DNA of 64,000 bases, from contig OX437086.1 in the NCBI GenBank assembly GCA_949299565.1, positions 678,919 to 742,918 on the forward strand, given 5' to 3'. The translations under genes and the position numbers were made by a program. Positions 4,643 to 46,041 of this stretch are shown one piece after another. Every line of letters begins with the position of its first letter. Position 1 is the stretch's first letter. Under the pieces are notes generated by a model. That model made no database searches. It worked only from the letters and a program-made list of their open reading frames with translations, and was not told the DNA's origin. This stretch comes from an uncultured Bacillota bacterium. GTDB lineage: Bacteria > Bacillota_I > Bacilli_A > RFN20 > CAG-826.

Positions 4643-5779
4643 ATGGCTAAGCGAGATTATTATGAAGTTTTAGGAATTAACAAAAGCGCTAGTAAAGATG
4701 AGATTCGGAGCGCTTATCGTAAATTAGCCAAAAAATACCATCCTGACATCAATCACGAACCAGATGCTCCAAAAAAGTTCGAGGAGATTCAAGAAGCGTA
4801 CGACGTTCTCTCTGATGACAATAAGCGCGCTCAATATGATCAATTCGGAATGGCGGCTTTCAGTCAAGGCGCTTCGACCGGAGGAGCCGGAAATCCTTTC
4901 GGACAAGGATTTTCTTCGCAAGGATTTGGCGATGTTGATTTAGGCGACATCTTCAATTCTTTCTTTGGCGGAAGCCCGTTTGGGAATCGCCGGGGAAGTA
5001 ATAGCTCTTCTCCGCGGAAAGGGGCTGATAAATTAGCCTCAGTTCGCATCTCTTTCATGGATTCGATAAAAGGCGTGAAGGTCAGTCTCAACGTCAATTA
5101 TGAAGCACCATGTAAACATTGTCATGGAAGCGGTGCTGAGACGCCCGATGATCTTGTGACTTGCCCGGATTGCGGAGGGCGCGGTTATAAAACAGTGCAG
5201 CAGCGTACTTTTTTCGGCGTCAGCGAAACGCAAGTTATTTGTCAAAGATGCCATGGTCGCGGGAAGATTGTCCGTCATGTCTGCCATGAATGCCAAGGCG
5301 AAGGTTATAAAAAGACCCGTACTAATTTAGAGGTCAATATTCCAGCCGGCATCATTTCCGGTCAGCAACTCCGCGTCAGCGGCTATGGAGAACGCGGTCG
5401 CAACGGCGGTCCGAATGGCGACTTAATCATTGAAGTCGAAGTCGAAAAAGACCAAATCTTTGAACGCGACGGCAACGACATTCATATCGAACGCGAAATT
5501 TCTTTTGTGGACGCGGCTTTGGGATGCAAATTAGAAGTTCCGACGGTTTATCGAACTGTTGAGGTTGAAATACCGTCCGGCACTCAAAGCGGAGCGATCA
5601 TTCGTTTGAAGGGCGAGGGGATTAAAGGCAATAACCGGAAAGCCGGCGATCAATACATTCACCTTAAATGCATCGTTCCGACTTTTCTCAGCGAATCGCA
5701 AAAAGATTTGTTGCGGCAATTTCAGAAAGAGGAAGCAGCAAAAGGAAACAAAAGCTGGGGTCGTTTTTTCCGCAAATAA
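4643..5779 (+). CDS. dnaJ: Co-chaperone DnaJ
   Basis: J-domain (HPD), a Gly/Phe-rich linker, and four CxxCxGxG zinc-finger repeats. Confidence 0.95.
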   Translation: MAKRDYYEVLGINKSASKDEIRSAYRKLAKKYHPDINHEPDAPKKFEEIQEAYDVLSDDNKRAQYDQFGMAAFSQGASTGGAGNPFGQGFSSQGFGDVDLGDIFNSFFGGSPFGNRRGSNSSSPRKGADKLASVRISFMDSIKGVKVSLNVNYEAPCKHCHGSGAETPDDLVTCPDCGGRGYKTVQQRTFFGVSETQVICQRCHGRGKIVRHVCHECQGEGYKKTRTNLEVNIPAGIISGQQLRVSGYGERGRNGGPNGDLIIEVEVEKDQIFERDGNDIHIEREISFVDAALGCKLEVPTVYRTVEVEIPSGTQSGAIIRLKGEGIKGNNRKAGDQYIHLKCIVPTFLSESQKDLLRQFQKEEAAKGNKSWGRFFRK

Positions 5780-38806: not shown

Positions 38807-39904
38807 ATGGAACGTTTGATTATTTTCGGCGGAGCGTTTGATCCGATTCACAACGGACATCTTCGTCTGGCTCAGGCCGCATCTTTGCTTTTAAACGCGG
38901 ATGTTGTTTTTGTTCCAGCCAAGTCTCCGCGTTGGAAAAAAACACAGGCGAGCGCGAAGGATCGCTTGAAAATGTTAAAATTAGCCTTGAGCGAAAAAGG
39001 AAGCGGCAGTTTTTCGTTATCAGACGTGGAACTTAAGCGCGACGATGAAGTAACTTATACGATAGATACTGTCCGCTATTTTAAAAACCGCTATCCACAA
39101 TATGAAATCTTGCTTTTGATGGGCGAAGATCAGGTTGAACGCTTTCCGAATTGGGAAGATGCTGATCTTCTTTCAAATATGGCAAACATTTATTACGTAA
39201 CGCGCAACAACCGAGAACCGGATCCAAGAATTCTTCAACGTTATAACATCAAATTGCTTAATTTTTCGGGAGCCGGCAACGTCTCATCGAGTGCTATCCG
39301 CAATTTACAATCGCTTGATATGCCTGGCAAAGTTTTAAATTACATCGAAAAAGAAAAACTTTACTATATGAAAGAATTGGGCGAGCGTCTCGATGAAAAA
39401 AGACTTGAGCATTCCCTTTCAGTCGCGCATCTTGCCATGTCAATTGCTTCTCGCAACCGCCTTGAAATCGCTGAGAAAGCCTATATCGCCGGCATTCTTC
39501 ATGATTTAGCAAAAGGAATGAGCATTGACGAAAGCAAAAAACGTTTAGAAGATGAAAACCCTGAGTTATTGAAACTGCCTTCCTATACTTGGCATCAATT
39601 TTTAGGAGCTTCTTTGGCCCGTGAAATTTTTAAAATTGAAGATCAAGAGATTTTAGACGCGATCAGTTATCATTGCACTGGGAAAAAGCATATGTCGCCT
39701 TTGGCGAAAATCATTTTCTCGGCTGATAAAATAGATCCGCTTCGAGGATATGATTCATCGCGTTTAATCAGAGCTTGTTATAGTTCTTACTATCTTGGCT
39801 TTTTAAAGGTATTAAAAGAGAATCGCGAATATTTAAAAGAGAAAGGACAGAATGACGATAATGTTCTTACGCAAGAATGTTATTCGCTCTATCTAGGAGA
39901 TTAA
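38807..39904 (+). CDS. nadD: Fused nicotinate-nucleotide adenylyltransferase NadD plus HD-domain hydrolase YqeK
   Basis: N-terminal IFGGAFDPIHNGHL (the (H/T)xGH nucleotidyltransferase motif). C-terminal half LEHSLSVAHLAMSIA...AGILHDLAK is the HD motif of YqeK. A single 365-aa ORF. Confidence 0.8.
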   Translation: MERLIIFGGAFDPIHNGHLRLAQAASLLLNADVVFVPAKSPRWKKTQASAKDRLKMLKLALSEKGSGSFSLSDVELKRDDEVTYTIDTVRYFKNRYPQYEILLLMGEDQVERFPNWEDADLLSNMANIYYVTRNNREPDPRILQRYNIKLLNFSGAGNVSSSAIRNLQSLDMPGKVLNYIEKEKLYYMKELGERLDEKRLEHSLSVAHLAMSIASRNRLEIAEKAYIAGILHDLAKGMSIDESKKRLEDENPELLKLPSYTWHQFLGASLAREIFKIEDQEILDAISYHCTGKKHMSPLAKIIFSADKIDPLRGYDSSRLIRACYSSYYLGFLKVLKENREYLKEKGQNDDNVLTQECYSLYLGD

Positions 39905-39906
39905 AA

Positions 39907-40230
39907 ATGAGACAACCAAAGATTTTGAAAATTATTGAAGAGACTTTAACCGAGCATAAGGCAGAAAATATAAGTGTGTTCAACGTTAAAGAACGAACGC
40001 CTTTTAACGATTACGCTGTGGTGGTTGAAGCACCGAACGAAAGAGCAATCGAAAGCTGGGGAGAATACCTCATCAAAGCTTTAGAAAAAAACGGCTTTAA
40101 AGTTCGGGCGAAAGAAGGAAATTCAAGTTCTAAATGGGTTATAATTGACGCAGGTGTAGCGATTATTCATTTGTTGGACAGCAAAGAAAAAGAACGCATA
40201 AATTTTGATGATTTATACGGCAAGTTCTAA
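39907..40230 (+). CDS. rsfS: Ribosomal silencing factor RsfS (Iojap)
   Basis: ~108 aa with the ...NDYAVVVEAPNERAIES...WVIIDAGVAIIHLL pattern of RsfS. In the yqeL position after nadD-yqeK. Confidence 0.75.
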   Translation: MRQPKILKIIEETLTEHKAENISVFNVKERTPFNDYAVVVEAPNERAIESWGEYLIKALEKNGFKVRAKEGNSSSKWVIIDAGVAIIHLLDSKEKERINFDDLYGKF

Positions 40231-40260
40231 TAGGATTAATAAACTAGTAGTTCGAAAGGT

Positions 40261-40289
40261 GATCAGCGGCTCTCACCGCTGATTTTTCA
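40261..40289 (+). terminator. Rho-independent terminator of the yqeG-rsfS operon
   Basis: GATCAGCGG-ctctca-CCGCTGAT followed by TTTTT. Confidence 0.65.
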
Positions 40290-40301
40290 TTGCTTTAATT
40301 A

Positions 40302-40329
40302 ACTTCGTATAATGTCCATTATGTTAAGT
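40302..40329. other. Candidate dif site (XerCD chromosome dimer resolution) at the point where gene orientation switches
   Basis: ACTTCGTATAA-TGTCCA-TTATGTTAAGT versus B. subtilis dif ACTTCCTAGAA-TATATA-TTATGTAAACT (arms 9/11 and 9/11) and the E. coli right arm TTATGTTAAAT (10/11). Located where + strand genes (1-40.2 kb) meet - strand genes (40.8-64 kb). Confidence 0.55.
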
Positions 40330-40800
40330 AAATTAAAAAAAGAATAGTTATATACTAATTTATTTTAAGTTACATTTTCGAAGTTAAAATAATTACGACT
40401 TTTTAATCCACAGACATTCACATGGCTCTAAAACTACTAATTATCTACTAATAGAAAAATTTAAATATTGCCCAACTGCTTTCGTTTTTTTGTCAACGAA
40501 TTGTCATGTTAGTAGTTTTATTCTTTTCAAAACATCTTTCATTGATTTATATATTGACGTTGATTGTAATCACTAATGCATTCTTTTCTGAATAAAAATG
40601 TTTTTATCTTTTATATTTATAATTATCGCTCATTAAATTATGGTTATGTTGCATAAAGAAAAGCTCTAATATAACAATAAAGAATATAGGAATTATCTAT
40701 GTCATTTACGACTTCCGATATCAATGTTTTTTAATGAATGTGGATTGATCGTTATCGATAGATAAAATGATCTGTGTTAACAAAAAAAGACAAAAATATA

Positions 40801-41943
40801 TTAGTCAAACATTTGGCTAACCTTCTTAAGAAGCGTTGGAATTTCTAATTTCTGCGGACATACTTTCATGCATTGTCGACAATTGATGCAGCTATTCGCC
40901 TTCCCGTGTTCGTCGCTTGTATGAAGACTATAATTTTTATCATCGATTGATGACTTAGAATTTAAACCGTTGTTCCTAAGCTTATTGTTATAGTCCGAGA
41001 ATAATTCGGGAATCATGATTTTCTTCGGACAGCCTGCACTGCAATAATGGCAAGAGGTGCACGGGATAAGAGATTCTCCTCGCAGTTGCGCCACCACATT
41101 TTTGATTGCTTCATTTTCTTTTTCGTTTAGATCGAGGCCCTCATCCATAAACGAAGTATTGTCTTTTACTTGTTCTAAATTGCTCATGCCCGATAAAACC
41201 ATAACAACTTGATTTTGACTAGCCGCGAAGCGAAGCGCATAAGAAGCGTCGCTTCCGTTATTTAAGGATGCGAAAATTTGATGAGCATCTTTTGGCAATC
41301 TGGCCAAAATCCCGCCTTTAACAGGTTCCATTACGATGATTGGTTTTTGATATTTTACGCAAATGTCATAGCATTTTTTTGACTGGACGTTGACGTATAA
41401 ATAATCTAGGTAATTAAATTGAATTTGAACGATTTCAATTTCGGGATGACGTTTAAGAATCATTTCCAAAACATCCGCATGATCATGAAATGAGATGCCA
41501 AGGTGATGTATTTTTCCTTCCTCTTTGAGTTTTAAACATTCTTCAAAACAGCCTTCCTTCTCGTAAAAATCAAGATTTCTACTATTTACCGCGTGCAATA
41601 AATACAAATCGAGATAATCGACTCCTAGAAGTTCTAGTTGCTTTTGAAAATACGGACGGATTTCATCGTGTGAACTAAAAAGTCCTGAGGTTAATTTATC
41701 GGTCAACCAGTAACTGTTGCGTGGATATCTTTTTGTAAGAGCCTCTTTTATGGCTTTCTCCGATGCTCCGCGGTGATAACCATGCGCGGTATCAAAATAC
41801 GAGAAACCTCGTTCCATAAATAAATCAAACATCACCTTCGTCTTCTCAATATCGATAGATGATTCATCGTTTGGATCTAGAAGCGGCAAGCGCATGCAGC
41901 CGAAACCTAAACGTTTTATTTTCTCATTCCACGGAAAAAGCAT
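40801..41943 (-). CDS. Aldo/keto reductase fused to a C-terminal 2x[4Fe-4S] ferredoxin-like domain
   Basis: N-terminal AKR TIM-barrel motifs (GFGCMRL...FDTAHGY). C-terminal CTSCHYCSAGCP...CINCRQCMKVCP cysteine clusters. Confidence 0.75.
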   Translation of the reverse strand: MLFPWNEKIKRLGFGCMRLPLLDPNDESSIDIEKTKVMFDLFMERGFSYFDTAHGYHRGASEKAIKEALTKRYPRNSYWLTDKLTSGLFSSHDEIRPYFQKQLELLGVDYLDLYLLHAVNSRNLDFYEKEGCFEECLKLKEEGKIHHLGISFHDHADVLEMILKRHPEIEIVQIQFNYLDYLYVNVQSKKCYDICVKYQKPIIVMEPVKGGILARLPKDAHQIFASLNNGSDASYALRFAASQNQVVMVLSGMSNLEQVKDNTSFMDEGLDLNEKENEAIKNVVAQLRGESLIPCTSCHYCSAGCPKKIMIPELFSDYNNKLRNNGLNSKSSIDDKNYSLHTSDEHGKANSCINCRQCMKVCPQKLEIPTLLKKVSQMFD

Positions 41944-45162: not shown

Positions 45163-46041
45163 TTATTGCCGCCAATAACGATCATAGGCTTTAAGGATTC
45201 TCTGCGTCGAAACATGCGTATAAATCTGCGTTGTCGCGATATGACTATGACCTAAAAGTTCTTGAACAACGCGCAACGACGCACCGTTTTCCAATAAATG
45301 CGTCGCGAATGAATGTCGCAGTATATGCGGAGAAACTTTTTCTTCGATTCCCGATTTTTCTGCTAATGACTGCAAAATTTGATAAACATAAATTCTGCTT
45401 AAAGGACGCCCGCTTTTCGAAAGAAAAACATAAGCAGTTCGCGCGCCTTTGTTTCGTTTGCGAGGACCTTCCATATATTTTTCTAAGTAAGAGAGAGCGA
45501 AACTAGAAACCGGAACGCGCCGTTCTTTATTGCCTTTCCCGCGAATTCTAAAAAGCCCTTCATCGTAGAAAATATCATTTCTCTTAAGATTAAGAAGCTC
45601 GCTGATACGCGCGCCGCTTGCATAAAGACATTCAAGAAGCGCTTGGTTTCTTAATCCGCTATCGGTTTCTATCGAACAGGCAGCGAAAAGAGCTTCAACC
45701 TCCTCTATCGAGAGAACATGTGGCAATTTTTTTGGAATTTTCGGACCTTTGATAGGAGGCAACGGACGGCCGATCTCTTTTTCTTCTTCAAGAAAAAAAT
45801 AAAAATTTCGGAGAGTCGAAAGTCTTCTTAAAATTGTCTGTGCGCTTTTTCCGTTCCGTTCCTCGCTTTCAAGAAATGAACGCACTTCTTCTGGCCCCAG
45901 CATTTTCGTTTCATCGATTTCGGGGAAAAGAGAAAAAAACAATTTCAAATCGTCTTCATAAGCCTTTAAAGTTAGAGGCTCTAGCCCCTTCTCAACTCTT
46001 GAAGCTTCTAAAAATTCAGTGATTGCTTTGCTTTTTTCCAT
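45163..46041 (-). CDS. xerD: Tyrosine site-specific recombinase XerD-like
   Basis: C-terminal catalytic region HILRHSFATHLLENGASLRVVQELLGHSHIATTQIYTHV. Sits upstream of deoB, as ripX(xerD)-drm does in Bacillus. Confidence 0.75.
   Translation of the reverse strand: MEKSKAITEFLEASRVEKGLEPLTLKAYEDDLKLFFSLFPEIDETKMLGPEEVRSFLESEERNGKSAQTILRRLSTLRNFYFFLEEEKEIGRPLPPIKGPKIPKKLPHVLSIEEVEALFAACSIETDSGLRNQALLECLYASGARISELLNLKRNDIFYDEGLFRIRGKGNKERRVPVSSFALSYLEKYMEGPRKRNKGARTAYVFLSKSGRPLSRIYVYQILQSLAEKSGIEEKVSPHILRHSFATHLLENGASLRVVQELLGHSHIATTQIYTHVSTQRILKAYDRYWRQ

Follow-up and report, generated by a model that had tools for sequence, protein, structure and literature searches.

The 28-mer ACTTCGTATAATGTCCATTATGTTAAGT at positions 40302–40329 (+ strand) is very probably the chromosomal dif of a small-genome member of the Bacilli, lying in the replication terminus region. 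The site is a classical XerC/D-type 11-6-11 dif at the terminus; it is of a known kind and a routine call, and it provides a terminus landmark for the genome of an uncultured member of the Bacilli, with a source contig of ~1 Mb. A dif site at the terminus had been proposed in the sequence-only reading of this DNA, and the proposal is supported by the skew of the window (the whole stretch of 64,000 nucleotides that was analyzed), gene orientation, an adjacent xerD-type gene, and conservation in relatives. Judged from sequence, the conserved unit in this lineage extends beyond the 28-mer to a DnaA-box-like word and a pair of TACTAA heptads, both at a fixed distance on the XerD-arm side. The features of the locus are listed below.

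39877–40230, + strand: rsfS, ribosome silencing factor (TIGR00090, 68.8 bits, cutoff 56.9; synteny kept in relatives)
40261–40293, + strand: intrinsic terminator of the rsfS operon, a 9-pair stem (40261–40284) followed by a T-run
40302–40329, + strand: dif site, very probable from its match score, uniqueness in the window, conservation in 14 other loci, and the nearby skew maximum
40302–40312, + strand: XerC-type left arm ACTTCGTATAA
40313–40318, + strand: central region TGTCCA
40319–40329, + strand: XerD-type right arm TTATGTTAAGT
40330–40403, no strand: AT-rich spacer, 15% GC, unconserved in sequence and constrained in length across relatives
40343–40370, + strand: weak second dif-like word AATAGTTATATACTAATTTATTTTAAGT, with a right arm TTATTTTAAGT matching the true site at 10/11 positions and a left arm at 6/11
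40404–40412, + strand: DnaA-box-like 9-mer TAATCCACA (consensus of relatives TTWTCCACA; TCCAC invariant)
40434–40451, + strand: direct heptads CTACTAA-TTAT-CTACTAA with an 11-bp period (invariant TACT...TACT.A)
40801–41943, − strand: aldo-keto-reductase/4Fe-4S fusion, the first − strand (right replichore) gene, followed by an ABC permease, a binding protein, and deoB
45163–46041, − strand: XerD-like tyrosine recombinase, 292 aa, in the operon dxs-dinB-xerD-deoB, 4.8 kb from dif

The 28-mer is an imperfect inverted repeat with 11-6-11 architecture (ACTTCGTATAA-TGTCCA-TTATGTTAAGT). After reverse-complementing one arm, 8/11 arm positions are alike; the inner bases ATAA/TTAT pair as a palindrome, and the outer arms are asymmetric. 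Reference dif sequences for E. coli and B. subtilis were taken from PMC3025954. That source gives ACTTCCTAGAATATATATTATGTAAACT for B. subtilis, with arms ACTTCCTAGAA-TATATA-TTATGTAAACT, and GGTGCGCATAATGTATATTATGTTAAAT for E. coli, with the XerD arm TTATGTTAAAT (PMC3025954). The 28-mer matches the B. subtilis arms at 9/11 and 9/11 positions, or 18/22. Against the E. coli arms, the match is 17/22, with 10/11 in the XerD arm and 7/11 in the left (XerC) arm. This recount reproduced exactly the values given earlier for both B. subtilis arms and for the E. coli XerD arm. Among the ~128,000 28-mers of the window, the next best scored 15/22 against the B. subtilis arms, with none at 16 or 17. No match was obtained in 100 shuffles, and no second copy at ≤3 mismatches was found in the 64-kb window. 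The 28-mer is also single-copy in 20.9 kb of the same-species contig L246. The weak second word starts 14 bp past dif, occurs in L246 as well, and is absent from other species. It is probably a chance product of AT-rich DNA or a decayed half-site.

Compared with the dif of B. subtilis (CodV/RipX, equivalent to XerC/XerD), the site shares the 11-6-11 layout, the ACTTC start, the TTATGT core, and a location in the terminus region. However, its centre differs (TGTCCA here, TATATA there), its right arm is nearer to the E. coli/Acholeplasma type (TTATGTTAA..), and dif lies here 2–5 kb from xerD, exactly at the skew switch. An RTP/Ter-type fork trap is not evident here, unlike in B. subtilis. The xerD(ripX)-deoB neighbourhood is one that we take to be similar in B. 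subtilis. The XerD arm matches that of the E. coli dif (XerC/XerD with FtsK) at 10/11 positions and the inner palindrome is common to both; a role in dimer resolution may be carried over from E. coli, whereas the XerC arm matches at only 7/11 and the host belongs to another phylum. The sites predicted for Acholeplasma laidlawii (AGTGCCTATAATGTATATTATGTTAACC) and Lactobacillus casei (ACTTCGCATAATATATATTATGTAAACT) in the supplement of PMC3025954 were also compared. The right arm of the former is identical to the right arm TTATGTTAACC of the relatives and the left arm of the latter to their left arm ACTTCGCATAA, although both sites are computational predictions in other lineages.

The surroundings of the site carry the signals of a terminus. 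rsfS is the last + strand (left replichore) gene of parE-parC-yqeG-yqeH-nadD/yqeK-rsfS, and dif lies 18 bp past the stem of its terminator. The coordinates of gene, terminator, and 28-mer confirmed the earlier placement of the dif-like sequence just past the rsfS terminator. No other terminator-like site was found in 39800–41200, leaving the convergent-operon side of dif without an intrinsic terminator. The 570-bp gap at the gene convergence (40231–40800), previously described as AT-rich, measured 25% GC against 41% in the window. ORFs of at least 100 aa left of dif number 33 on the + strand and 5 on the − strand (33.1 kb versus 4.7 kb), and those right of dif number 0 and 17, respectively. 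The reported switch in gene orientation thus stood, while the description of the left-side − strand genes as short did not, since there are five of them at 246–404 aa.

GC skew per base is +0.071 left of dif and −0.046 right of it. In 2-kb windows, the skew is positive in all up to 40 kb and essentially negative beyond. Summed along the window, G−C peaks at 40269, 33 bp short of the 28-mer, and this closeness is striking. A skew that turns from + to − where genes converge is characteristic of a terminus rather than an origin. The weak GC skew of the relative L004 counts against the terminus reading. A dif site marks the terminus region and is no proof of the exact point at which forks meet (PMC3025954). 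The 7-mer GAAGAAG, the Lactococcus KOPS (PMC3384302), is oriented toward dif in 40 copies and away from it in 9. This polarity was dropped as independent support for the terminus because GAAGAAG is a coding-strand word and the 40:9 ratio is confounded by the coding strand. Among other KOPS/SRS words in the window, GAGAAGGG showed a ratio of 3:0 and GGGNAGGG had zero copies.

Small ORFs within the gap encode 20–29 aa and show no conservation. Searching 40231–40800 by tblastn with the gap-adjacent proteins of relatives revealed no gene remnant other than a same-species 38-aa ORF. Upstream, a single 365-aa ORF at 38807–39904 (PRK07152-type) combines nadD and yqeK, a fusion kept throughout the lineage. 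The fusion and the 1.06-Mb length of the source contig jointly point to a reduced-genome, Mollicutes-like member of the Bacilli.

Conservation was assessed in two species representatives (L003 and L004), six contigs (L246–L251), and six further loci of the same synteny found by a degenerate-pattern metagenome scan (L059, L099, L104, L111, L126, and L147). With the window, these make up 15 loci; 13 of the 14 comparison loci are from other species, and L246 is from the same species. Where measured, XerD of the other species is 45–53% identical to that of the window. In nearly all of L003, L004, and L246–L251, hisS-aspS-tkt-...-dxs-dinB-xerD-deoB, followed by a transporter or PemK-like gene, meets rsfS-nadD/yqeK-(yhbY)-yqeH-yqeG-parC-parE. 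The exception, L248, has neither hisS-aspS-tkt nor dinB, and its gap is partly inverted. Comparison with the dif sites of related taxa, which the sequence-only reading had named as a check, found a near-identical 28-mer in the orthologous convergence gap, between the yqeH-nadD and xerD-deoB blocks, in 14/14 further loci. Their consensus is ACTTCG[CT][AT]TAA-N6-TTATGTT-N4.

When 13 sequences were aligned with dif as the anchor, the 28-mer showed 18 invariant positions and the flanks could not be aligned. The site is one of just three conserved islands in this otherwise unalignable intergenic DNA. At the outer ends of its arms, the relatives show a consistent left–right difference (ACTTCG... versus ...TTAACC). 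The orientation of dif relative to xerD or its gene block is kept in 13/14 loci, with L248 inverted. This comparison shows that dif, xerD, and the skew switch have been held together across a deep lineage. In L248, the segment 14719–16675, with dif, the flanking motifs, and ABC transporter genes, has the opposite orientation to that in all other relatives, and dif is still found at the gene convergence. In L003 and L004, the next gene lies ~140 bp from dif. One sub-group has a gene of ~200 aa with a PemK/MazF-like toxin domain abutting the locus (L003 6879–7460; L004 12191–12808; also L059, L099, and L104), and the stop codon of this gene falls within a few bases of the heptads.

The XerD-like gene had been placed ~5 kb from the 28-mer, in agreement with the measured distance. 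Its product was best matched by the XerD model TIGR02225 at 311.9 bits, just under the equivalog cutoff of 329.6. It passed the Xer subfamily model PRK00283 (295.2 bits, cutoff 279), scored 289.6 bits against the XerC model, under its cutoff, and reached just 109.8 bits against the XerS model (cutoff 267). A 51%-identical homologue carries the NCBI name XerD. Sampling of the species is sparse. One same-species cluster has homologues of the protein at 98% identity; those outside the cluster reach at most 53%, and all come from uncultured Bacilli.

By homology with the XerCD/dif system of E. coli and the CodV-RipX/dif system of B. subtilis, a recombinase of the XerC type would bind the left 11-bp arm and one of the XerD type the right. 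The two dif sites of a chromosome dimer would synapse at the closing septum, and sequential strand exchanges across the 6-bp central region would turn the dimer into monomers. An FtsK/SpoIIIE-family translocase, reaching dif from the XerD-arm side, would normally activate the exchange. We infer binding, catalysis, the partner XerC, and the translocase from the same homology. Neither a second Xer gene (xerC/codV) nor ftsK/spoIIIE was found within the 64-kb window. As xerC commonly lies away from dif and xerD, its absence from 64 kb carries little weight.

This single Xer-type gene raises the alternative that one recombinase, rather than an XerC and XerD pair, acts on the 28-mer, as in XerS/difSL, XerH/difH, or archaeal XerA. 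The source contig of ~1.06 Mb, which suggests a reduced genome, the likeness of the two arms after reverse-complementing, and the position of the protein between the XerD and XerC models, below both cutoffs, are all consistent with such an arrangement. However, the site is 28 bp long with a 6-bp centre and is not a 31-bp difSL, and the protein falls far under the XerS cutoff. The consistent asymmetry of the outer arms in the relatives is as expected for two proteins, and the usual separation of xerC from this locus makes its absence from the window little telling. We therefore regard a single-recombinase system as unlikely and retain the XerC/D-type dif as the preferred reading.

The pattern ACTTCGNATAA-N6-TTATGTTAA was present in >120 metagenome contigs, and the dif-like pattern in 92 viral contigs. 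The viral contig L238 (IMG/VR, 5751 bp) is a gokushovirus-type microvirus with an F capsid, Rep, and a Chlamydia-phage scaffold protein. Its dif-like site at 2721–2748 (−) is almost identical to the dif of L248 and L059. A heptad pair follows at 2679–2696, +24 from the dif-like site, with DnaA-box-like words further on, in a 1.35-kb non-coding region. Gokushoviruses are known to integrate at dif (PMC7062461, PMC3091885), and a near-identical site in L238 is as expected of a dif-integrating element. The contig is probably a dif-integrating phage of this Bacilli lineage. A module scan of the viral contigs found a dif-like site together with a DnaA-like box in 0 of 93 loose matches, and the related viral contigs L283 and L290 pair a dif-like site with a non-DnaA-like box. 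Because no loose viral match pairs the two, the module is not a general phage feature. Two or three dif-like sites per contig were seen in the unrelated metagenome contigs L066, L035, L041, L045, and L084. In L066, two direct copies at 954–979 and 5583–5608 share a strand and are separated by 4.6 kb, as would be expected of an integrated microvirus or other dif-exploiting element.

The viral matches also bear on whether the 28-mer itself, instead of being the chromosome's own dif, stems from an IMEX, a microvirus prophage, or a plasmid, as the attachment scar or resolution site of such an element, with the box and heptads derived from phage. Besides the 92 viral contigs sharing the pattern, L238 with its near-identical site, TACTAA pair, and DnaA-box-like words, as well as the weak second dif-like word 14 bp downstream, would fit this origin. 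Yet the gap holds one full site only, with zero phage or plasmid genes between the housekeeping blocks, and the site is exactly at the skew and orientation switch. Site and position are conserved across species whose XerD is ≤53% identical, and the ~140 bp between dif and the next gene in L003/L004 leaves no room for an element. We consider a mobile-element origin very unlikely. A chance origin of the 28-mer, as an imperfect palindrome between convergent operons, is conceivable in an intergenic gap of 25% GC, since AT-rich DNA abounds in ATAA/TTAT words. It is effectively refuted by the conservation of 18 invariant positions in 13 sequences with unalignable flanks, and it is also at odds with a score of 18/22 against a next best of 15 and with zero matches in the shuffles.

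Beyond this chromosomal dif, the DnaA-box-like word and the heptad pair form a module on the far side of the XerD-type arm in 15/15 loci. L246 and L059 were added to the set by looser heptad matching, giving the 15 loci. The box starts 74–95 bp after dif in 15/15 loci and 85–88 bp after it in 10/15; the heptads start 104–125 bp after dif in all 15. In most relatives, the DnaA-box-like word is TTTTCCACA or TTATCCACA. GC content of the dif-to-box spacer is 12–28% in 14/15 loci and 42% in L111. The box-to-heptad spacer is 18–21 bp in 9/15 loci and 28 bp in one, with lengths clustering near 10, 20, and 29 bp. This clustering suggests that box and heptads lie on the same helix face. No helical phasing was seen between dif and the module, as the offsets spread continuously over 74–95 and 104–125 bp.

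The heptad pair is unique in the window. Its pattern gave 27 matches in 2.09 Mb of fetched DNA, 13 of which lie 104–122 bp after a dif, and only in this lineage is TACTAA concentrated at +100 to +145 from dif. The module is kept despite differences in the abutting gene, which may be PemK-like, an ABC permease, or the aldo-keto reductase of the window, and in L248 it is inverted together with dif. TACTA/TAGTA is the most depleted A/T-rich 5-mer of the window (36 observed versus 195 expected, O/E 0.18, rank 1/96), which makes the tandem TACTAA pair more notable. Avoidance of TAG/CTA could contribute to this depletion, and the depletion is weaker in the relatives L250, L004, and L248.

The module fits no known dif-flanking element. 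We compared it with the basal unwinding system (BUS) of Firmicute origins, where a box with ≤2 mismatches to TTATCCACA is followed, ≤16 bp away, by at least 3 consecutive DnaA-trios in a 3-nt register (PMC8287927). The top strand of the B. subtilis origin reads CTACTATTACTTCTACTA, and the C. difficile counterpart reads CACCTACTACTATTACTACTATGA (PMC8287927, PMC10201434, PMC7561715). As in oriC, a box resembling 5'-TTATCCACA-3' precedes CTACTA-containing repeats, and the module's TAATCCACA is within ≤2 mismatches. Each module heptad also holds TnnT, the recognition motif of DnaD (PMC8287927, PMC10201434, PMC7561715). Going by the strand notation of these papers, the repeats would lie on the box strand, as they do at the origin. 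However, the module repeats are 11 bp apart, which is not a multiple of 3, and the spacer is usually 18–21 bp, over the 16-bp maximum. The AT-rich stretch flanks the box on the wrong side, and the module is found beside dif, at the gene convergence and skew maximum, instead of at oriC. An oriC BUS was rejected on trio register, spacer, and location; the box agrees.

Plasmid Xer sites offer a second comparison. In cer and psi, accessory sequences on the XerC-arm side bind ArgR/PepA and ArcA/PepA, respectively, and ArcA-type regulators bind direct repeats. The module would resemble them as a putative set of protein-binding sites beside an Xer core, at a nearly constant distance of ~100–200 bp. 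It differs in lying on the XerD-arm side of a chromosomal dif, in its motifs, and in showing no helical phasing with dif. A cer/psi-type accessory sequence was rejected, as the module is on the wrong arm side in 15/15 loci. RTP/Ter traps consist of ~30-bp sites with two imperfect inverted repeats, arranged in two opposed groups around the terminus (PMC13220808). This type was also rejected, since the heptads are direct repeats in one oriented copy on one side of dif and are inverted with dif in L248. XDS are dif-like, XerD-only sites of SMC unloading (PMC11840125); taken by that description, they do not account for a box and heptads that resemble neither dif arm, and they were set aside. A sigma-70 promoter was rejected because the spacer varies (~10, 20, and 29 bp). 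Rfam detected no RNA family in the whole window, and RNAalifold on 13 aligned dif-to-heptad regions returned the dif palindrome only, with zero covariation. Without an Rfam match, consensus structure, or covariation, the module was rejected as an sRNA or riboswitch.

TACTA and AACTA are binding words of the B. subtilis nucleoid protein Rok, and TACTA depletion has been described for Rok-bearing Bacillus genomes (PMC6212790). A TACTA core is present in each heptad, and TACTA is depleted in the window as it is in those genomes. To our knowledge, Rok occurs only in some Bacillus species, and no rok gene was seen in the window.

Four unranked readings of the module may be put forward: an architectural or accessory site for Xer recombination, a binding site of DnaA and/or a DnaD-type protein that is duplicated only at termination, a protein roadblock shielding dif from the convergent operon, and a site for a Rok-like TACTA binder. 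Functional coupling of the module to dif is a tentative proposal. Equally speculative is a dif locus built as a ~150-bp composite of XerC/D core, AT-rich spacer, DnaA-box-like site, and phased TACTAA heptads, which might bind host protein(s) such as DnaA and/or a winged-helix or DnaD/Rok-like factor. Such a module could aid or control recombination by Xer, link termination with the regulation of initiation, or protect dif from the convergent operon; dif-integrating microviruses would copy parts of it. Chromosomal dif sites are not known to need more than the 28-bp core and FtsK, and accessory sequences are known only for plasmid sites. If the composite locus is real, chromosomal dif sites would gain their first described conserved accessory module. 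Because it has outlasted changes of the adjacent gene as well as an inversion, and is echoed in a dif-targeting microvirus, the module offers a testable lead, one that may reveal new players in termination and dimer resolution in Firmicutes without RTP/Tus.

Heptads were also observed in other arrangements. L149 carries four of them 24 bp after its dif. In relatives, heptad pairs or triplets without a DnaA-like box occur at the operon boundaries aspS|tkt, xseB|dxs, and parC|yqeG (L004 2653–2670; L251 1114–1131; L250 6908–6925; L003 11193–11221; L004 16332–16360; L248 2605–2622). These box-less sites suggest a DNA-binding factor with several genomic targets.
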